From Owenia fusiformis (lineage: Eukaryota), in NCBI GenBank assembly GCA_903813345.2, contig CAIIXF020000001.1, forward strand, positions 17,980,001 to 18,044,000: 64,000 nt of DNA. The letters run 5' to 3'. The notes under the pieces are model-generated. The model worked only from the letters and a program-made list of their open reading frames with translations. It made no database searches and was not told where the DNA came from. The translations under genes were made by a program, and so were the position numbers. Below, piece after piece: positions 235 to 39,260 of the stretch; within the stretch, counting starts at the first letter, position 1, and each line of letters starts with the position of its first letter.

Positions 235-3200
235 TTCAAAAGATTCTGTTCAGTGACCTTTCCTAAGCTTCTACTTTTAGCTATTTTTCAGTCACATTTT
301 CAGAGGGCTGAAAAAAATTTATTTCATCATGTCTAGGGTCATTCTGACCATGTACATTGTGATCCTTGTCCTGTAAATGATATGTGGAACTATTTGAATT
401 GACTGGATGTCAAAACAGAACTCTGTTATCTTTGTTAAAAAAATATCTAAAAGTGCCACATTTTTTGTCACTTCCTGTTTTTGTCATTTCCTGTTAAGTG
501 GGTGTATGTGTTTGAAAAGAGTTTTTTTATCACTATTTTATGTTATAAAGGAGTTTCATTCATTTGTTTATAACGAATTTCACCGACTGATCATTCCTCA
601 AAAAGGTGTTTTGTGCTAGATGAGAAGACTCAAGATGCAAGACGATAACGACAACGTCATGGTGACAAATTGCATGTCAATATTTTTTCATTCGAATTAT
701 AAAGGGTCAGTCAGCAATTCTGATCCACTCCGAAATCGCTTCATAATGATCCGTCCTTTCGATAGACTGATTTTCATATATAAATACGCAATTGATCACG
801 TAACAAGTGAATTTTGTTTGCATTTTACAAATTAAAAAACATTTCAAGGTGGTTCATGATCAGGGCAGAGACTGCGAGCCTTACTTATTCCCCGTACACA
901 GGGCTCCAAGTATCCACTTTTTTCCAGTTCCAGAACATGATATCTAGATCAGAGTCTTGAGTTTGCCCTTGTTGAACAAAGAAATAAGAGCGCTTGGATC
1001 ACTTTTCTATCTGAGGGATTTTGTTGGATCGGTTTGTTACTTTTAAGGTTATAGCACACAATTCTTGATCGGGATTGTCGTTTAAAGGGAATTGTTTTTT
1101 TTTTCAGACTTTTGCTGTACAACTGAATACGTTTGCCTTATCACCATTTTCATTCAACTGCTTCGATATATAGACTCATATGTCGGCAGAGTGTACCTGG
1201 ACCCATGCGATAAACCAAGTCCTAAGTTAGATTTTGTAGAGGTGTCTGAGTAGATGGCTATAGTAATCAATGTCCGTTATAAAACCTGACGTTTGTCTGT
1301 GATCTATTGACATTTGACATTTTAAAAGAATGCTAATAGCGAATTGTAATTTCTAATAACGGTACATTTGCATGAGTTTCTGCCATCTTACATTGGTACT
1401 GTGATTGTCCCAGAGCTCCCGCCTTATAACAATAACTATACTCATTGTACTTGATAACCCTGATCAGTCTGTGAAATACATGTATTCTTATTGAATATAT
1501 CATTTTTAGCTTTCCTAATTGTCCCATAACTCAAATAAAACGAGATTATACTCGGCGTAACATCCGGGTGGATATACTGTTGCAGCTATTCATACTGCAG
1601 TACACGTAATTGACGAGGACTATGGTGACCTTTGACAATCAAGGGAATTAAGAGGACAGTTAAGGACCCCGATTGCTGATTCAAAAAACATATTATGAAA
1701 ATACATCATGCCAAATGAAGTGGTTCCCCTTGTTTAGCAGCTGACATTGTTTATATGTGATCGTCCTCTCTGACCGATCGTAAACCATCACTAGCTCGAA
1801 TAACACAAGTTTGTATTGTTTTGTACGCAGTTACTTTCCCTGCTTCAGTGTCTATGTTCGAGTCCTCTTGACAACCCATTCTATATGTGAAGTACCTCAG
1901 ATCCAAGTAAACTGTTTATTGATTCTAGACAATGACATTTACCTTGCAATTAATATAAACAATAAAAACTTTAATTAAACCTGGGACTATTTAACTTTGG
2001 TCTATTTACTAACTTTATTGTCTTTGCACCAATGAGTAAGGCAGGGTGGACAGAAGGTCATGTTTGCTCTCTGAATGTTTCGAAGACCGTCAAGATAAAA
2101 TGCTCACATCATAAATACATAACTGAACGTCACCCACGCATCAATTCAGATATTCCGTAACATTTTGAAGAATAAAAAATGAAAAAATTGCCATGATAAA
2201 AAATATCTAAAAAACAAAGATAACAGAGATTCAATTTCTGTGTGGAACGTTTATTTACGTATGCCGTCGACCATTGTATTTAAATTCTTTGTATACTTAA
2301 TGGTTGTCATGTTTTGTTAAGCGTTGCTAGGTGATTTCATCATATCTAACAGAACCTCAATTTTACTGCATCGTCTTGAGGTTCACTCAGTGCAAGTTCA
2401 GTCTTCATTTAACCCCACTTTCGCCTTAATTTACGACATTTTTATACCATGGCGGTCTTTTATTAATGGATAAGTGACCGTGTAAACGGTATATTCTACC
2501 TTCTTACAAATTTCCCCAATTCGTAACTGTCTTTCACATGTCCAAATATAGAAATAATTATGCTCATGTTCGTAAAATGAAAAGTGTAATACACAGCTTT
2601 ACATCTATTTAACAATTCTCATATCAACGCTTTATACTACAAATATAGTATCTGATGGCATAAAATCCGCACTTTGATGGCAACGGTTTGACAATAAAAT
2701 TTAAGTTCTGCGAGGTATATGTCTATGCAATTGATGTTATTAGTAGTAGGTGACCTTACTTTTGCCAGTTTCACTTGCTGTTAGGATAAATACAATCATG
2801 TCGAGTAAACTCTATACAAAACAACATTCCTGAAACCTACGTGGTCAACATAACAGGTAAGATAATTTACGTATAAAATATATTAATCATTTTCAGTAGA
2901 CAGTGGGACCCCATACTGCGGTTAGCCACCCCCTCGATGTGGCCCAAATGAAGGTCATTTGTGACGACAATATCGCCACATCACTCCAGTATTATGAGAT
3001 TTGTGGCATCTTCCTTGCGGCCTCCTTATCTGAAGACAATCATGGATATGATGAAGAATCCACTACTATAGGGATGAGTTGTGATGTTCGGGGGATTACT
3101 GAATCGTATAAGAGCTTAGGGACGCGATAAATCAAATGATGGGAAACTGCTAGGCTACGACAAACTGGATGCGCTGCTTTGATAATGACCTTATCTGACT

Positions 3201-3871
3201 GAGGTTATTCGGTACAAACTAATAAAAACTAATAATATCATTTCGATTTCTATATTATCCATTCAATGGGCTTGGTTTAGATTGCGCTATGAGAAAGGAT
3301 AATGGCTGCAGTTAGTGAAAGTAATTCGATGCATTAGAAATATCGCGGCATTTAGTGAAAGCGATTTTGAATATCGCATATTTTTCCCATGGAGCTATGA
3401 GATCATGGTATAGTTGTCACAAGAACACAAGATTTGACTGAGTCATACACGCTGTTACAAATTGTTAATTTTATAGTTCGCTCAAACCTTCTGATCAAGT
3501 TGATTGATTAAAAGTCAGTCTTATGTAAATTTTTAATTCGATGAATATGGATCTAGGCTTCTCTTGCTCACCCATGCTTATCCTCCTAGGTGCCATTCAC
3601 GTCATATTAATCTCTCTGCTATATATGATGTATATGTGCGATAACTGTTACATAATAACAAACGGCAAAACGAGAATTTGAATACAAACGGCAAAACCGG
3701 AATTTGAATGCATTATTAAAATTGGCAGATTGGTATTAGGAATTGTATAATTGGCTCTAAGTATGATCATAGTACTATATAGACCGCTGGATGTTATTAC
3801 AGATTTAAAATGTAAAATTGTTAGTTTAATTTGTTAGTTTTCATCTTAAAATTGGGCAACAATATGTCATA

Positions 3872-5640
3872 TACCGTATTCAACCATACTAGATGTAACC
3901 CTAAATAGCAAGGCATACCATATCGTATTTAACTGTATGCAACCATAAGGAACAAGGCATAACATATTTATTCAACCTTACTAGATACAACCCTAAATAG
4001 CAAGGCACAACTTATCGTATTCAACTGTATGCAACTAAAAGAAACAAGACATAACAAAATTTAAGCTTACTGGATGCAACCCTAAATAGCAAGGCAACGT
4101 ATCGTAATCAACTGTATGCAACCAAAAGTATAAGCATAAAATTTTTATTCAACCATACTTGATGCAACCCTAAATAGCAAGGTATACCATATCGTAATCA
4201 ACTGTATGCAACCAAAAGTAACAAAGCATAACATTTTTATTCAACCATACTTGATGCAACCCTAAATAGCAAGGTATACCATATCGTAATCAACTGTATG
4301 CAACCAAAAGTAACAAAGCATAACATTTTTATTCAACCATACTTGATGCAACCCTAAATAGCAAGGTATACCATATCGTAATCAACTGTATGCAACCAAA
4401 AGTAACAAAGCATAACATTTTTATTCAACCATACTTGATGCAACCCTAAATAGCAAGGTATACCATATCTTAAATCCCACTTGGGTAGCAACACAATAGA
4501 ATTTGCTGTGGTTTATTTTTAAGAATGTATGGTTTTATCAAAAGGAAAGTGCATTATTTTTCTATTGTTTTTAAAGAATGTACACTTGGCAAGCTATCAA
4601 AAACAAGTGAGACATAAATGACCATTGACAGTTTTTGATAGTTTTCATTCCCTAAAAACAATATACAAAAATACATGTACCCTTCTCTTGTTACTGTGCA
4701 TTCTTTAGAATAAAACAATTTATCAATTTTTGTTGCTATCTACATCATTGATCTTATCTTACTTACAAATATTCGGCTGTATTCAAATGCAATGTTCTGG
4801 ACTGGACAGTCACCTGTAGTGCACTGAAGCTAGACTAATTATAGCCCACTCAGTCAATTACATCAACTCACACTCATGAGGTCAATGCAACCAACTCTTT
4901 TTGTTGTTACAATTAATTGGCTAACTACATGAACAGTCAACTCAAAAGAACTCACTCACTTACATGTATCAAACCACTAATTACCCTACATGAACAGTCA
5001 ACACAAAAGAAATAAAATTTTCCAGATTAGATCATTGACCATTTACCTGCAATATACCATTTACCTGTAATAAGAATGTGTGTGATTTAAGTAAGATAAA
5101 GCATTCGAATTCGATTTGATAAGAAATAATACCTCAGGCCTTCGGCCTTCGGTGTATTATTTCTTATAAAATCTCATTCTTATGCTTTATCCAGTACGTA
5201 ATCAACTGTATGCAACCAAAAGTAACAAGGCATAACATTTTTATTCAACCATACTTGATGCAACCCTAAATAGCAAGGTATACCATATCGTCATCAACTG
5301 TATGCAACCAAAAGTAACAAGGCATAACATTTTTATTCAACCATACTCGATGCAACCCTAAATATCAAGACACCACTTATCGTATTCAACAGTATACTCG
5401 TACAAATAAAAGTAACAAAGGCATAACATTTTTATTCAACCTTACTAGATGCAACCCTAAATAACAAGACACCACTCACCGTATTCAACTGTATGCAACC
5501 ATAAATAACAAGACACCACTCACCGTATTCAACTGTATGCAACCATAAATAACAAGTACAACATATTTATTCAACCTTACTAGATGCAACTGTAAGGTAC
5601 TACGTATCGTATTCAACTGTATGCAACCATAAGGGGCATC
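3872..5640. repeat. 92-bp tandem repeat array made of two related subunits, split by an insertion
   Basis: ATTCAACC recurs at 4147, 4239, 4331 and 4423 (period 92). The array stops at 4469, resumes in register at 5198, and degenerates toward both edges. Confidence 0.92.
4470..5197. mobile_element. 728-bp TSD-less insertion with a long 3'-terminal hairpin (Crypton-like non-autonomous element; class inferred)
   Basis: Interrupts the 92-bp unit precisely at TACCATATC|GTAATC with no duplication. Hairpin 5091-5197 has a perfect 14-bp stem ATAAGAAATAATAC/GTATTATTTCTTAT and apex AGGCCttcGGCCT. Confidence 0.75.
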
Positions 5641-6578: not shown

Positions 6579-7832
6579 CATTGATGTGTTTCAGAATGTC
6601 AATAGTTTTGTCTCGGCAAGGCGTACAAGGCGCACAAGGCGGCCGTAGCTTCACGAAATGGACATAGAATATCTACATCGCACTGCTTATCCATACATTG
6701 TATTGTTATGCTGCATACTTCTCTCGACTTTGGAAAGCTATGGCCGCAGTAGATCAAATGTTACTGAAGCATAGGCTTATGTATTTTACAAGTAGACTAT
6801 ACTAGAGGACATTTGCAAATCTTAAGATTCGATTGTTTTCCCTGTGCATTTGGCTGCTGAATACAGTCATGTAAGCATTGATTTGATAGTGGCCATGCAT
6901 GATCAATGATATTAATATCATTGGACAACGACATGACAAGGCTTATCTTTATTTCCAAGTAAGTGAGTTGAGTTATTTATCTATTTCACTTTACTTTCGA
7001 ATACTGTTCTTCGACAACGAGGAGTGCAAGTTACACATTTCTAAGAGAATGTGTACTTGTACTCTTTTGTAAGGGTGTTGTTTCCCGGGGACCACTGTAC
7101 CCTACGATCCCAAAGGTTGCAATCATGCCTAGCTTTCGGTAAGGAGGTAGATGGAAACATGAAGTGGGCATGGTTGGAACTCAAATCACAAATTGAGAAC
7201 TGCTTAAGATAGTATTCCACATTGTAAGATAAATAAGAACTTCTAATATAAATAAAAGTGTCTCATGTGTGATTTCATCTATGCGACGCACCATCTCTGT
7301 AGAGCACTGTGGCTAGTCGATCTATGTGGATGCAGTCATTTATATGTAATGTATCGTGGGTACTCGCGTTCATTATAGGGAATGGGATCATTGCAAAAAT
7401 ATGACAGCAAATCGAGGTAAGTGATCTCAGAGTTTCTACTTAACATTGTGACTTGAAATCTTGCATACATATTCAATATACATAGTATGACAATGTGTGA
7501 AATTTTCAGCTACCATATTCCTGTTATAGAGAAGATATTTGAAAAACATTTCGTAAACGTCAACATATATGTATAAAATGGATGCACCTATGTATCATTT
7601 GGATTCAGAACGGTAACAAATGGATGCTTTAATGAATTATACTTTTATCATGATGATTTATTTACTGATGGACAACTGGCCAGATTTTCTTTGTATACAT
7701 TGTTCGGATAAACATTCCTTACTCATTAAAGTAATTAGCCACCCCATTACAAGTAGTCTAAAGACACCCTCTTGAAAAATTGAAAATACTATATATAAAC
7801 CCATCAACTGGAAAATGCCATTACAGATGAGA

Positions 7833-8821
7833 TAAAGGACCCACGGTCCTGCTCACACAGTGTAGAACCTTCAGAGGAATGTATATCCTGATGTTCAAAC
7901 AAAAGTATTGGTAAATATGAGATCAATGAAAGATGAGTCCTTTGTTGTTGGTTCAGATATGATTTGTTGTAGTCAAAGGAAAAACTATGAATTTAACCTA
8001 GATTTTGACCTAGGCCTTTTAGTGTCCAAATTTTGAAGGAAAGTAGATTTTGAGGACGGCTTCTATTGTAGATTCTTATTAAGTTGGCAGCATCCAAGCT
8101 GTATCTAGTGTTGTGTTGTTACAAAAATGCCATAACTTCCGAACCGAAAGTCGGATCAAAATCTGGTTTGCAGATTCGGATTCTTTGGACAATTCTACAC
8201 ATATTTCATAACTCATACATTGAATTCCAAGAAGTTTTTATTGTGACCTACTTTTCGGATGCCATATCTCAAAAACGGTAAGAGTGATCAAAAACAACTT
8301 GCCTGTAGGGATTAGCTTTTTTCCAAGGAACATGATTAAAAAACGGAGCAAAAATATTGAAGGACGACTGAGAAAATTGAAAAAATGACAAAGTACTGGA
8401 TTTGACCTAGTTCTTGACCTTTGACCTAGATAAAACCTGATTAGACCTAGATCTGGACTTGGACCTGAACTGGACCTTGACTTGGACCTGGACTTGGACC
8501 TGGACTTGGACCTGGAAATGGACTGGACTGGTATTTTTTCAATCTTTTCTTCACTTCTCTTGACTTTCTATAAGGCTATCATCAGATCGATTTTTCTCGA
8601 AATTTAAAATTCAGCAATTTCTCGGAAACCGGGCGAACTTGGGAAATGGCGATGATAGGTCAAATAGACATTATGGATATGCATAAAACAAATGTGGAAA
8701 TGACTCAATCCGAATGGCAGTTTTAATTTGTGCAGCAAATGTTGACAGACGGACGGACCAACGGACGGACCAATGGAAGGACGCCTGGTCGATCCCATAG
8801 GCTTACTGTGTGAGCCAAAAA
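7833..8821 (+). mobile_element. Helentron-associated non-autonomous element (HINE-like), nested in the Transib-like element
   Basis: 5' palindrome AGGACCcacGGTCCT, then subTIR GCTCACACAGT (7851-7861). 3' ACGG microsatellite (~8745-8770), complementary ACTGTGTGAGC (8805-8815) and an A run. Internal tandem repeats, no TSD, A-rich junctions. Boundaries are approximate. Confidence 0.7.
8398..8532. repeat. 6-bp-unit minisatellite (GGACTT/GGACCT/TGACCT) inside the HINE-like element
   Basis: gacttggacctggacttggacctggacttggacctgg is directly visible. Confidence 0.85.
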
Positions 8822-8972
8822 CTATGGTTTTATCGCTAATACTGTTAATTTGAAAAACGGGTCCATAACATGTAATGATGACAATGAAAATGTTGAAATT
8901 AGGTACGCCAATGAAGTGAATTCAGAGCAAACGACCCATCGACCCACTGGAATACCCACAAATCAAGTTTCA

Positions 8973-9551
8973 TAGCCTTGCCCAAGTCGGTCTCTTTTAC
9001 TTATCTTGATTTCTATCATGACCACCTTGTACCTTAGAGAAAGCCACGTGCTTTACCGACCCAATGTTTTTGTCGGTACAATTTGACAAATCAACGACGA
9101 GCCTACATTACCGGACTAGGTCTTCGTGCATTTCTTCGAGAATTCAGTTTTGATTTTTTTGAATCAACATTGAATTGCATGATTTCATTTAGACGAGTAT
9201 TAATGACTGCTTACATTCCAATGTACATTTAATAACATAATATATTGTAACTCTCAAGAAACACTCGATCAGATCATTGAATTTCAAGTCCTAGATGGGT
9301 AGTTTGCTTTTTTTATGCAGGTCAACCTGATAACGTTTTGATTGGTCAATCAGCCTGAAGTCACACGTTGTGTCCATGTCCATATTGTCAATCAATATGG
9401 TTTTGCGATACCGTTAGGTAGCCTAGGTATTATGGGAATCTCGAAACCGCTGAATAACTTAGTATAATATCAGCGATGCTGCATAGGATTGTTTAAGGTT
9501 GTAATAATTCAAGATCAGATAAGTAAATAAATACCGACTTGGGCAAGGCTA
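8973..9551. mobile_element. 579-bp non-autonomous TIR element with 9-bp TSD (AcademH-like; MuDR not excluded), nested in the Transib-like element
   Basis: Perfect 19-bp TIR TAGCCTTGCCCAAGTCGGT (8973-8991 / 9533-9551), imperfect to ~38 bp. Perfect TSD CAAGTTTCA at 8964-8972 and 9552-9560. Confidence 0.88.
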
Positions 9552-11051
9552 CAAGTTTCAGAGCCATTAACATTCCTTGAAAATGACAATGAGCAGCCAA
9601 CAGATGTACAATCCGTAAATCTTGATGATTTTGTCAGCTCAGCTGAACGAGCCTCCAGATTCCTTGAAACAAATGACCATAATTCAAGAATAATTTTATC
9701 TTATCGTGGTAAGTGGAATCTTTCCAATTACCAATATAGCATTATTATTGTTTTTTGACACTGTGGATTAAAATATTAAAAATACACACATTCAAAATGA
9801 TTCAATTGAAACCTAGCCAGTCTGTTCAATGAATCCAATCAGAACGTCTACTAATCCACATGATACATCATAATTAAATTGCTTTTTTAAAGCGGATATT
9901 TCATACCATAACCCCAAAAATATTATAGAACGCATTGTATTTGTAATTTACTTCACACAGACATATTTGTGTATATGTGAAATAATTATATTACTTGACT
10001 TTTTTATTCCCCATTACAAGGTAAACCTATGGCAAATTATACAGCCTTCTCACAGCTGTGAGCGAGATGATAAAACTGGTCGAGTGAACTTGTTTGAGTT
10101 ATCTATTCTCCGTAAAAATATCAGAGAATGTGTGTTTATAGCGTAGCTTTGGTTTTATAAATCAATGAAGTATGATATACACGGATGAGTAAATATAGAT
10201 TATTTAAACAGAAGAGCAAAATTCTTCCATTGAAAAGTACAGAGGCGGGTACTCATGAAACATTACATGTGCCTGACTGCATCCTCATAGATCGACTAGC
10301 CACAGTGTAGAGAGCATCCACACACGTTATTATCGTAAGAAAGAGAGAACTGGGAAAGGTAAATCCATCAGGCTGGATCCGACTGGATCCGACTGTGCAT
10401 GACAAATATATCGCATATACCTACTGTTGTTCTCGTTACACTCTACCTTCCGAGGTTCTGAAATTTAAAAAAATATTAATATTTATTTAAAAATGGATTT
10501 AAAATGTTTCTTAAAAGTGAAAAATTTCATATCCAAAGTGTTAAATTTGATATTATTTTCGTTTGTTTATTTCACTGAAATTCAGTGGATTCAGATTCAA
10601 TGAATATTGTTGAGTAAAAATAGTATGCCAAAAAACTCACATGTTATTCCCGATTGTTCATTGGTGGCAAAATAACGACCAATCAGAACACAATAACGTA
10701 AATACACTCAGCTTGTATTCGCGAATGCAACTAACGACTGTTGGCTATCGGATTAACACACTATCTTACAGATAACTCATTTAAATATGAATAGTACCTG
10801 CCGCAATTTCATTTATATTCAAATGAGTTGGTCATAGAATAGTAGGTAAACCCGCTAGTCGATCCGCTCGACAAGCTCAGTGTATTTATCTTATACTGTG
10901 TTCTAACTGGCCAGAAGATGTAACGCTTGCCTACTTATATGTAACACTCACCATATGGTTCAGTGCCTTTTTGATTATTCATTTTAAATGGCAATGGGTT
11001 ACGTATTAGTTTCAACCCGTTTTGATCTTGATGTAACATACATACATAGAG

Positions 11052-35615: not shown

Positions 35616-36044
35616 TGGTAATTAATTATGAATTCATAGAAACTGTGACCTTTATCTAAAAAGTTGGCAAATTTTAACAAGAAGTGAAGATAACTATTTT
35701 CTATTTGTCTTCAATTAGTCTTTGTTATTATTGAAGTCACGGTGAGATGTATTTTGATAGAGCAGAAACGTATACTGTTGAAATATTTTTATTAGCGCAA
35801 TATCTTCCGATAGGTGTGTGTCAGTGTCAGAGTTCATCTCTACACATCAACCACAGCCGCAGTTTTATTGGTTGACATAAAACGAAGTATGTATCAGTTT
35901 ATATGCGGAGTTTATAGCTGTGGGAGCAATAATCTGCATTATTATTATTCTTAAAGGCGAAAATTATCTAGGAACTTGCGTTTAGATATTGACTCATATA
36001 CTTTGTGGATTTTAGTGGTCATATTAGTTCAATTTATAGACGAT

Positions 36045-36426
36045 ATGAGTTCATATTTCCCACAAGGCCAGGCCGGTGACATGGGGCCCCACGATGCAGG
36101 ATCGAGTGCTGTTTCGGAAGGGAGTTTTAATCGAGAAAGCTGCACAAGTACCGATTTCAAATCCCCCGGATACGTTGCCCCGGGGTCGAATTACAATGAC
36201 TTTACATGCCGAATGCCAGCAGCCTTTCAATCCAGGACGGGGGAATTTCGAAATGGACTACCAAATAACAATTTTCTAGCTTCACAATATGGCCAATCGG
36301 GACTCGGAGGCCAAGGTTTTGCCGACATTGACTGTGGTTTAGGAACTGCTACCTCGCTAAGTCATTGTTCACCAGTGTCTCCACCCCCACGAGTAACACC
36401 ATTTTACCCATGGATGTCTATAGTCG
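36045..36426 (+). CDS. Lox2: Hox gene Lox2 (Ubx/abd-A-like central Hox), coding exon 1
   Basis: ATG at 36045 opens MSSYFPQG... (the conserved Hox N-terminal SSYF motif). The exon ends ...RVTPFYPWMSIV-G with the YPWM hexapeptide, followed by the donor GTAAGC at 36427 (phase 1). Confidence 0.93.
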
Positions 36427-38976
36427 GTAAGCTACCATTTCAGTTAGTTTAAAGTTTCTAAATCCCTTATGTTGTACTACAGATAAGTTACGACGCTATT
36501 ATTCGCGTCATTATAACTCTCTATAATTACAATTCCCGCAGTTAAGATGGCTTCTTGTGATTTAAAGGTTGAAAGATCACACTGCTCTTTCATCTCAACC
36601 ATTTGGGGTTGTTTATACCATGTCTTGTCCTTTTAATATGTTGATATGCTTTAATTATTCCTACCTGTTCATACTTATTCATTTAAACTTGTATTGAATG
36701 AGTAAGCATGTCGTCTTAATTGTTGTACTTCTGCGGGTATTGTCATGGTGTATCATGGTTGCACCGCAATATTTGAATTGGTTTACTGTAACTGTGCTAT
36801 ATGGATTCAGATTGACAATACGACATCTGATGGGCCAAAACACATAAGAAATCTCGATAACACAATTGAAGCAGACCATATCAGTAAATGACTTACTTGT
36901 GTCAATTGAATATAAACTATCTGCTAAACAGGTCACCGTGCCATCCGAAAGATGCAATTGAGCGATTGGAGTTTACACTGGTAATGGTATAATGTGATGG
37001 TAAGATGCTCCTTGCAGACTTGAGCTTCATGTGGGTGAGAAACCAATGCAGCTTCCTACATGTGCTGGGTTGGATCATGGTTCAGAATATCAGGGGCTAG
37101 TTTTCCCTCAAAATACCCGGGGTTAGTTTTCCTTCAGAATATCGGAGGCTAGTTTTCCTTCAGAATATTGGGAGCTAGTTTCCCCTCGGAATATCAAATA
37201 TCAGGGGCTACTTTTCCATCAGAATATTGGGGGGTCAGTTTTCCATCAGAATATCGGGGGCTACAGTAATTTTCCACCAGGAGCTAGTTTTCCCTCAGAA
37301 TATTGGGGGCTAGTTTTCCCCATGACTTGTCATGGTCCTGGATGTTTCTTTATCGTGCAATGTTTTGTAATGTTCTTTGGTACACTTCTCACCTTGCTCT
37401 TGTTCTTGCATAACAATCAGCATTTTGTGCTTTATTAATACATGTGAATGGTAAGATATGGCTAAAATAAGTGACAGTACTATACATGCAAGAACAGCTA
37501 AACATTCTTTAGTTATCATTGAATTGTTCAAGATTAGTTGACATAGATACGTAGGTCAAACATGTTGTTGACCAGATTTAACTTTCCCTGGCTCTCCATT
37601 GCCATTTTGCACAAACGTCCCATAGCTACTGGCCATATACATGTGTCCATCAATAGTATCAACCCTGTCCTTAACCTCATGTGCTCTGTCGCTATGTTTA
37701 GTTCCCTGGGGAGATTTGCTATAAAATAAGCATAAAATAAAATCATATCACAAACATGGTTTATGACCGAGATAGGAAGATCTCAGAACACGAGCCCCAT
37801 ATCTTGCGCATATGTAAACATTACTAAATGGCCAATACTATCAATTTATAAAAGAAATCGCGTTCAAGTAGGTACCCACCTCGCAACTGTAAAACATCAA
37901 CAAATCAAAGATGATGATGCAAGGAAATATACCAAAATAGCGTCTGTAACAAACATATACAGGTATATTATACACGTTAGTTGAACCGAGCCCAATCTGT
38001 TTAAATATTTTTAAAACTAAATGCTCCCGAAATTCCAATGGCCTGTTCACTTGCCACGATTTTACAACGATTTTTGGGCATTCAGAAGATAACATTTCAT
38101 TCGGGTTGTTCAGGTTGTTCATACTATTCGATGTTTCTCCCAGTCTGTCAGATGATATGCATATTTTTAGGTAAATTTTATTCTTCCGATGTAGCCAAAA
38201 TGGAAAGCATTGCATAAACCAAACCTCCATAAATCATTCACAAAGGCTAAAATACCTGCCCTCCTGTCGACATAAAAAGTGCAATAACTCTTAATTGTAC
38301 TTTTGTGTAATAAATACAATTACACGTTAACATAATTTACATTATTTTATATTACAACACATGCCAATATATTGCTGACCCCTTTTAAATAATGATAAGT
38401 TTTAATGATGCACTTTTTAAAATAACATTGATTTATTATCTTAGTTCCCAAGCACTAGAATTTGGAGAGAAGACTCGTCACACTGTTCACTCTCAAATAT
38501 CCCTCAGTCAACATTTTTATTACTGAAATGATTTATAGCTGAGCTGGGTAAAACTTTAATCAATTATCCCTTTTATTTATTTGATTTATTTCAAAATTAT
38601 CCCATTTTTTACTTTACGACGGTTTAGAATAGTCATTACTCTCGAAACTTTGGTTAAGTTCACTTTGAAGTCAAATGTATAAAGTTGATGTCACCTAGCC
38701 GTAACGGGGAATTTACTAAGTTATGTCTAGTCAATCCCAAATTGTAAACAGATTTGAACATTGGTAGAGTAAATAAAAAGACTCAATCGGTAAGAGAATG
38801 GTTATGGCTACTGACGTGTACAATAGCAAAACTAGTTATTTCAGTTCAAGTTTCCAGTCAAGGTTTTTGTCTTGGCTTCCCTCAAATGCTGACACAAACA
38901 TGTTATATATGATTGCTGTTTTATTTCAAAGTGTAACCAATAACGTAATTATCGCATCTGTTTGCTATTACTTCAG
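36427..38976 (+). other. Lox2 intron (2550 bp, GT-AG, phase 1) between hexapeptide and homeodomain
   Basis: GTAAGC donor and pyrimidine-rich TTCAG acceptor; the frame is preserved; this is the canonical Hox intron position. Confidence 0.9.
37082..37320. repeat. 26-27-bp minisatellite in the Lox2 intron (~8-9 copies)
   Basis: Unit tcagaatatcrggggctagttttcc(c/t) is repeated. Confidence 0.9.
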
Positions 38977-39260
38977 GGCCAAACTCTAATCAAAGAAGAA
39001 GAGGAAGACAGACTTACACTCGCTTCCAGACTCTGGAACTGGAGAAAGAATTCAAATTCAACCGCTACTTGACAAGAAGGCGACGGATAGAGCTATCCCA
39101 CATGTTGTGTCTGACGGAAAGACAAATTAAAATTTGGTTCCAAAACAGAAGAATGAAAGAGAAAAAGGAGAACCAAGCGATCAAAGAGATCAACGAACAA
39201 AGTAAGACTGATCCAATACCAGCACAATCTTCACAGCGGACATTGACTAGTCCTTCGTAA
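38977..39260 (+). CDS. Lox2: Hox gene Lox2, coding exon 2 (homeodomain 38994-39173, UbdA peptide QAIKEINE 39174-39197)
   Basis: Acceptor ...ttacttcAG ends at 38976. The phase-1 join gives [74 protein letters not shown]..., stop TAA 39258-39260. PNSNQ, KFNRY, ELSHML and MKEKKE match Lox2 rather than Lox4 as I recall them. Spliced CDS is 666 nt, 221 aa. Confidence 0.95.

Follow-up and report, generated by a model that had tools for sequence, protein, structure and literature searches.

A transposon with Transib-like ends upstream of an Owenia fusiformis Hox gene is probably a deletion derivative of a P-like, YqaJ-bearing lineage

Do ends that resemble the signals of the antibody recombinase identify the transposase that moves an element? 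The question is raised by a 3,003-bp element at positions 7305-10307 of a 64-kb stretch of Owenia fusiformis DNA (contig CAIIXF020000001.1; this whole stretch is referred to here as the window), which lies between two perfect copies of TAGAG and both ends of which read CACTGTGGCTAGTCGATCTATG inward. In a preliminary description made from the letters of the window, it was placed in the Transib/RAG-like (RAGL) superfamily as an internally deleted member. Its non-autonomous and internally deleted character, its CAC ends and its 5-bp duplication stand in our analysis; its membership of Transib/RAGL does not, given the published end consensus, the missing nonamer and the P-type catalytic core of related proteins. 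We assign a probability of roughly 0.65 to the reading that the element arose by internal deletion within a P-like, YqaJ-bearing transposon lineage and is moved in trans; the likeness to the ancestors of the antibody recombinase probably does not go beyond the surface.

The earlier statements on the ends are borne out. Direct reading of the 7305 and 10307 ends gives CACTGTG inward in both cases, the arms of the terminal inverted repeat (TIR) are identical at 33/34 positions over the first 34 nt and at 54/63 (86%) over the full 63 nt, and the flanking 5-bp target site duplication (TSD) is perfect (Table 1). With three mismatches allowed, the 22-nt tip of the TIR is found at exactly two sites in the 64-kb window, one per strand, and in 0/100 dinucleotide shuffles. 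In a scan of the whole window for CACNNTG...CANNGTG pairs (57 x 58 sites), in which a pair had to be flanked by a 5-bp repeat and to show a TIR identity of 14/20 or more, the element ends were the sole pair to pass, and BLASTN of the element against the 64-kb window found no further copy. A 7-bp direct repeat, TGTAGAG at 7298-7304 and 10306-10312, can also be read, since the left TAGAG follows a TG and TG also closes the element; this reading leaves the ends unequal by 2 nt, and the symmetric 5-bp reading is therefore preferred. The sequence GGGTACTC occurs at 7358-7365 and 10247-10254, on the + strand in both TIR arms and as such in direct rather than inverted orientation, which explains two mismatches between the arms. 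In two contigs from other members of the family, the alignment continues 2 nt beyond the right end (10307-10309), so that the flanks there also begin with TA; this may reflect a target preference or the same locus in two runs. No convincing subterminal repeats were found within the element, and tRNA and Rfam scans of 7000-10600 gave no match.

The element carries the broken 5' part of a gene. Among the 21 open reading frames (ORFs) of at least 50 residues in the element, the 12 that were scanned (52-109 residues) had no Pfam match above threshold, in agreement with the earlier statement that no transposase ORF is seen. A 204-residue protein, P0001, labelled Owenia fusiformis, an annelid, matches 9552-9698 at 88% identity and in tblastn is collinear with 7620-7827, 8817-8972 and 9552-9768 at 74-88%. 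A bivalve as the source is unsupported here, the nearest proteins bearing the label of this annelid. The segments are separated by two nested inserts. In contigs from other copies, 7827 and 8817 are separated only by AGG or AGA, which is the Arg codon found in P0001, and 7828-8816 is therefore a nested block of this copy or of a subset of copies; the frame at 8814-8972 runs on in phase across the second insert into 9552 onward, 579 being a multiple of 3. A profile of 20 long proteins of the family described below matched + strand peptides of the element in the right order, weakly in the first part of the remnant (profile positions 4-26, E 1.3) and at E 4e-5 in the third (positions 149-172). 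There is a frameshift between 7751 and 7765 in the first part and another near 9694-9701 in the third, followed by a stop at 9769-9771, about where coding homology ends. The motif GGTAAGT at 9699 was considered as a splice site or exon end and ruled out, the stretch being coding in relatives and the frameshift lying there. In sum, the backbone keeps the first ~200 codons of the gene, broken by two frameshifts, two nested inserts and a stop, and the remnant opens with the very start of the protein, 315 bp inside the left end, and runs in the sense direction.

The relatives of this remnant include a family of large proteins. A HMMER search with P0001 against 1.84 billion representatives returned 59 proteins at E<=1e-3, in most of which P0001 residues ~22-200 align to the protein's own residues ~2-175, and which include the long proteins P0018 (1,120 residues), P0052 (968 residues) and P0023 (Pinctada, 469 residues). 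Searching for longer proteins by words shared with P0001 had yielded none at E<=0.01 among 582 candidates, and the word-free HMMER search then recovered them. Identity between P0001 and its relatives reaches up to 44% over the stretches matched by HMMER, and P0002, which is 62% identical to P0001, reads on, without a change of frame, into the conserved block that follows in the long proteins (MRY...FW..G..LFHGKFLR). The large family comprises 32 proteins at E<=1e-3, mostly of 1,100-1,650 residues, labelled Pinctada, Mytilus, Ruditapes, Solemya or Batillaria (molluscs) or coming from unlabelled marine samples. Their N-terminal finger has the form C-x2-C-x12-H-x4-H, with C6, C9, H22 and H27 conserved, and a YqaJ domain is found in 23/26 members scanned, with the residues P581-D582...E596-x-K598 kept in 20/20. 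Further on, D775, D826, D1267xxH1270 and E1434 (in an AENFF helix; P0063 numbering) are conserved, the second Asp being separated from the D(2)H motif by a stretch of ~350-440 residues that is in part variable and acidic; in the columns with at least 85% conservation, no CxxC was seen. The Pfam model PF21787 (TNP-like RNase H N-terminal, the P element/THAP9 model) matched 8/26 members, the best at E 1.4e-5 and one above the Pfam cut-off, and RAG1, hAT, CACTA and THAP families are absent from the 11 Pfam families listed for these 26 members. Viral contigs held no relatives of the protein family.

The predicted fold of the core region points in the same direction as the PF21787 matches. P0088 (877 residues, corresponding to residues 626-1516 of a full-length member) was folded with 25 relatives as alignment, giving a model with a mean predicted local distance difference test score (pLDDT) of 69, a predicted template modelling score of 0.53 and a pLDDT of about 90 over residues 560-780. 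Foldseek placed the Drosophila P element transposase (6p5a_A) first, at E 2.2e-4 and probability 1.00, with RAG1 (best E 0.11), Hermes (0.92) and HzTransib (1.1) as runners-up. VIA-align, which is independent of Foldseek, gave 6p5a_A a Z of 19.6 (root-mean-square deviation 4.1, 278 aligned), ahead of HzTransib (7.3), RAG1 (6.0-6.4), amphioxus RAGL (BbRAGL, 6.0) and Hermes (6.0). The predicted model thus shows the relatives' catalytic core folding as P element transposase, not as RAG1 or Transib. By sequence, the family profile did not find P element transposase among PDB sequences (best match myomesin, E 0.15), and the lineage is therefore distant. The conserved residues agree with the fold as far as published signatures go, D(2)H being the signature of the hAT/P/MuDR/Kolobok/Dada group (PMC9587614) and C(2)C with H(3-4)H being common to Transib, RAG1 and the CACTA group (PMC12730594).

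These results bear on two further assignments. Membership of the CACTA/EnSpm-Mirage-Chapaev group, with its CA...TG ends, would accord with ends that begin CACTG, and the CMCT clade shares 5'-CA..TG-3' ends and duplications of 2-5 bp (PMC12730594); however, the 5-bp end of that range is Transib's, the EnSpm families there making 3-bp duplications (PMC12730594), and no conserved C(2)C was seen in the related transposase, which folds in the model as P element transposase and matched no CACTA-type Pfam family. The 5 bp seen here also lie outside the 2-4 bp expected of the CACTA/EnSpm-Mirage-Chapaev group, and we consider this assignment very unlikely. A hAT element of the hAT5 group would share the C/D(2)H signature with the relatives, and a hAT group with 5-bp duplications does exist (Repbase Report cited in PMC12730594). 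It is nevertheless barely credible here: the third base of hAT ends is reported to be always G (PMC1131882), whereas it is C in this element, Hermes reached a Z of 6.0 against 19.6 for P element transposase, and the hAT dimerisation domain was not matched.

Relatives of the protein family are encoded at 15 metagenome loci, and three of these carry notable repeats. L003 has TGTACGGT three times before its ORF and inverted copies at the far end. At L006:13-106, five TTCCGTACTGCAC repeats spaced ~20 bp apart stand at the contig start, upstream of a near full-length ORF of the zinc finger-YqaJ-P-like family; the repeat has six matches in the L006 locus, a number reached in 0/200 shuffles, and no inverted partner array was found within 2.7 kb downstream. 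L012:36-1357, in an unrelated metagenome contig, is a second short element, which holds the first ~221 codons of the same protein family flanked by 15-bp subterminal repeats in inverted orientation. Its ends are CACATGT.../...CATAGTG, with an imperfect TIR (AAATG and then CACATGTGAAATTTTAC... on the left, ...GTAATACTTCATAGTG and then AAATA on the right), and its 5-bp flanks AAATG/AAATA agree at 4/5 positions with no extension to 7. A CAC..GTG pair with flanks agreeing at 4/5 or better and a TIR as good as that of L012 occurred in 0/2,000 shuffles. The repeats in L003, L006 and L012 show a transposon-end architecture, and L012 lends moderate support to the view that the family has ends and a duplication like those of the window element. 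GTAC-centred subterminal repeats occur in these three loci. A likeness of L003 to the window TIR, seen by eye (local alignment score 21), was rejected when 27/300 shuffles scored as well. The window TIR as an exact word had 0 matches in metagenome contigs, and cross-comparison of the metagenome loci showed no homology boundaries. In L002:583-5024, a copy of the large gene is split in three frames (918-1736, 1727-2305 and 2394-5027); L002 is 95% identical to L009 over 2.1 kb, and that sample therefore contains recent copies too.

It is from the ends that an assignment to Transib/RAGL draws its strength. The element would then be a true Transib/RAG-like non-autonomous transposon, moved by a RAG1-core-type transposase, and the P0001-like ORF a captured 5' fragment that spread with the family. 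In the literature, Transib and RAGL are recognised by their CAC ends together with a 5-bp duplication (PMC1131882, PMC7204232), and in 2005 Transib was described as the only superfamily with a 5-bp duplication (PMC1131882). The target of the element is locally GC-rich, as has been reported for Transib and RAG (54% over 35 bp versus 34% for the window, at a single site). The internal letters of the TIR do not follow. The Transib consensus is CACAATG-N23-AAAAAAATC (PMC1131882), and neither arm has an A-rich nonamer at 12- or 23-bp spacing or any A-run: positions 31-39 of the arms read GTCATTTAT and GTCAGGCAC, and positions 20-28 read ATGTGGATG and ATGAGGATG. The protostome RAGL consensus is CACTWMCAAACKTYKBB, with a conserved AAA at positions 8-10 (PMC7204232), and the element TIR, CACTGTGGCTAGTCGAT, agrees with it at CACT only in the first 10 positions and reads GCT at 8-10; this comparison is with the published consensus, and a RAGL subfamily with such ends may be among the individual TIRs in the supplement of PMC7204232. 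A fragment that begins at the N-terminus of a protein, 315 bp in and on the sense strand, is what would be expected of a deletion derivative, and L012 shows the same layout in another organism. A survey of mollusc genomes reported a single Transib DDE element (PMC10294476). We regard the Transib/RAGL assignment as unlikely on this evidence, to be set beside the two observations in its favour that head the objections below.

The element belongs to a family that appears to have moved recently. Contigs from three sets and raw reads from one run, all from the same organism, were aligned to 6800-10800 at 80% likeness. In the raw reads (run X13), the depth over the single-copy flank 6800-7201 is 0-1.3 per orientation and that over the backbone ends is 263-325, a contrast that would put the family, as a rough estimate, at a few hundred copies of at least 80% likeness. 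In X1, contig record 8 (488 nt, depth 65.7) aligns from exactly 10306 on, beginning at contig letter 66, and the sole X1 contig covering 7242 also has a depth of 65.7 and ends 10 letters away; given the equal depth and the coordinates, the contig's first 65 letters fit 7233-7297, so that it would read flank, single TGTAGAG, flank. In X2, a contig of depth 64.9 was found both at 7242 and at 10428. An element-free allele with a single TGTAGAG therefore appears to be present in other individuals, on the evidence of contig coordinates and matching depths, and such apparent empty-site contigs in two other sequencing runs indicate that the insertion is polymorphic and young. The preliminary description had proposed looking for a single TAGAG elsewhere, and it is in X1 and X2 that this allele is apparent. 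The element is real, multi-copy and recently inserted, and we infer that it is moved by cut-and-paste.

Several observations weigh against descent from a P-like, YqaJ-bearing lineage. The two that also favour Transib/RAGL are that the 3' backbone (~540 bp) did not match the C-terminal end of the family's proteins, which makes capture of the gene's 5' end by an unrelated element conceivable, and that these TIRs were not found around any full-length P-like copy, no host genome having been searched. P0001 and the large proteins share 24-29% identity in four BLASTP alignments (P0018, P0063, P0023 and P0004). Around the longer ORFs of seven metagenome loci (L001, L002, L004-L007 and L013), a search for a TIR pair with a duplication gave chance-level pairs only, and the window TIR had no significant likeness to the upstream regions of 10 loci, the best case being reached by 27/300 shuffles. 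The L012 case was found and its test framed post hoc, and its TIR alignment score alone was reached by 52/500 shuffles. As to the empty site, the joint itself is a deduction from contig coordinates and matching depths. The duplication length was read from one copy in the window and from L012, and 5 bp would be the family rule by extension from these. P elements make 8-bp duplications (7-8 bp for the P superfamily), from which the 5 bp of this element differ.

With these objections counted, we still favour descent by internal deletion from a P-like, YqaJ-bearing transposon, and we infer from the relatives of the gene remnant that the family's own transposase is P-type. The preliminary description had held that an autonomous partner with a non-Transib transposase would speak against its placement; such a partner is what these relatives point to, by way of the remnant rather than of a full-length copy with the same ends. 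The parent would be an autonomous element with a single large gene, encoding an N-terminal C2H2 finger, a YqaJ-type (PD-(D/E)XK) nuclease and a P-element-type RNase H (DDE) core. Internal deletion would have left the 63-bp TIRs, a 5' leader of ~315 bp, the first ~200 codons and ~540 bp of 3' sequence. Unable to move itself, such a copy would depend on family transposase made elsewhere in the genome. After binding at the TIRs and the subterminal sequence, this enzyme would cut the element out and insert it, by its CAC ends, at a target whose two strands are cut 5 bp apart; repair of the staggered cut would yield the TAGAG duplication.

A wider proposal, which we advance tentatively and at somewhat less than even chance, is that the element represents an undescribed annelid/mollusc lineage of P-like DDE transposons, with a protein of ~1,500 residues that combines a C2H2 finger, an apparently intact YqaJ domain and a P-type core, with CAC...GTG ends and a 5-bp cut that copies the Transib/RAG hallmark, and with recent activity that left a polymorphism 26 kb from a Hox gene. 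The literature searched, whose coverage did not extend to Repbase and Repbase Reports, held no description of a YqaJ-bearing P-like transposon, of a P-like element with 5-bp duplications or of such a lineage among new superfamilies with 5-bp duplications, and the fusion of a P-type transposase to YqaJ is provisionally new. Non-autonomous transposons are classed by their ends and duplication length in Repbase practice (PMC4455052). If the proposal is true, Transib/RAGL cannot be diagnosed from CAC ends with a 5-bp duplication, and short lophotrochozoan elements filed as Transib on this basis may be misfiled. Searches for RAG ancestry by RSS-like (recombination signal sequence-like) ends would likewise pick up false positives in annelids and molluscs, and an RSS-like heptamer would point to a RAG transposon less specifically than has been assumed. 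The joining of YqaJ to a P-type core also raises the question of second-strand cutting by such an enzyme.

Table 1. Coordinates of the element's parts and of the sequences nested in it (window positions)
Feature	Position	Strand	Remarks
Left TSD, TAGAG	7300-7304		identical to 10308-10312
Left TIR, CACTGTG start	7305-7367	+	33/34 then 54/63 identical to right arm
Remnant part 1, start codon and C2H2-type finger (FLCIHC...H)	7620-7827	+	P0001 residues 1-44 at 82%, 46-68 at 74%
Nested block, ~989 bp, of other, far more abundant repeats	7828-8816		splits gene remnant
Remnant part 2	8817-8972	+	P0001 residues 70-123 at 78%; profile positions 46-84, E 0.11
MITE-like (miniature inverted-repeat transposable element-like) insert, 579 bp, own inverted ends TAGCCTTGCCCAAGTCGG...	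8973-9551		9-bp duplication CAAGTTTCA
Remnant part 3, to conserved FPITNIALLLF.DTVD block	9561-9768	+	P0001 residues 119-168 at 86%, 172-196 at 88%
3' non-coding backbone	9769-10244		raw-read depth 150-325 per orientation, similar to 5' part
Right TIR, CACAGTG end	10245-10307	-	pairs with left arm
Right TSD, TAGAG	10308-10312		identical to 7300-7304

The first nested sequence stands out from the backbone by its abundance, the raw-read depth being 470-3,900 per orientation in 7828-8816 versus 115-325 in the backbone and ~0.5 for single-copy DNA. This first block contains a 12-bp minisatellite, CTGGACTTGGAC x6.6, at 8453-8529; an 11-nt inverted pair, GCTCACACAGT, lies at 7851-7861 and 8805-8815, and loose alignment ends at 7976, 8124, 8183, 8294, 8399 and 8435 mark repeat-unit boundaries in what is a mosaic. 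The copies of the duplication that flanks the second, MITE-like insert are at 8964-8972 and 9552-9560, and reads and contigs also contain shorter forms of this insert that skip about 9016-9501. Beyond the element, another high-copy repeat starts at 10686-10800 (raw-read depth 617-697 per orientation).

The Hox gene is a two-exon Antp-class gene on the + strand, with an open frame containing YPWM at 35955-36449 (hexapeptide at 36405) and a homeobox open frame, also on the + strand, at 38949-39257 (Pfam Homeodomain, E 5e-22). It starts ~25.6 kb past the right end of the element, which accords with the distance of ~26 kb given earlier. The position of the element near this gene looks incidental. 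The family has hundreds of copies, other haplotypes appear to lack this one, and nothing special is shown for the Hox locus.

Among known systems, KolobokP transposons are comparable in their occurrence in annelids (including Owenia fusiformis) and molluscs, in their duplications of 3-5 bp and in the pairing of their transposase with an extra nuclease (PMC9587614); they differ by their terminal direct repeats, which are long, their RR..YY ends and their nuclease of the His-Me finger type (PMC9587614), features that were not seen here. ISL2EU elements also have a YqaJ nuclease domain (PMC4482050), but there a second ORF of its own encodes it, next to a Harbinger-type transposase, whereas in the relatives of our remnant it is fused with the core; ISL2EU duplications are 2 bp and the TIRs usually start with GG (PMC4482050), in contrast to the 5 bp and CAC of this element. 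Transib and RAGL are resembled in the 5'-CAC ends, in a heptamer one base from CACAGTG, in the 5-bp duplication and in the locally GC-rich target. In contrast to these systems, the element has no nonamer and no 12/23 asymmetry, and the protein family associated with it is P-like by predicted fold and signature and not RAG1-like. A THAP DNA-binding domain at the N-terminus is the rule in the P family. Unlike the P superfamily (Drosophila P element, human THAP9), the relatives of the remnant have an N-terminal finger of the C2H2 type, not THAP, and a YqaJ nuclease domain before the core. They are P-like in an RNase H core that is interrupted by a large helical insertion domain, in the D(2)H motif, in a conserved glutamate within an ENFF-type helix and in weak to moderate matches to PF21787, and the element shares with the P superfamily ends that start with CA.

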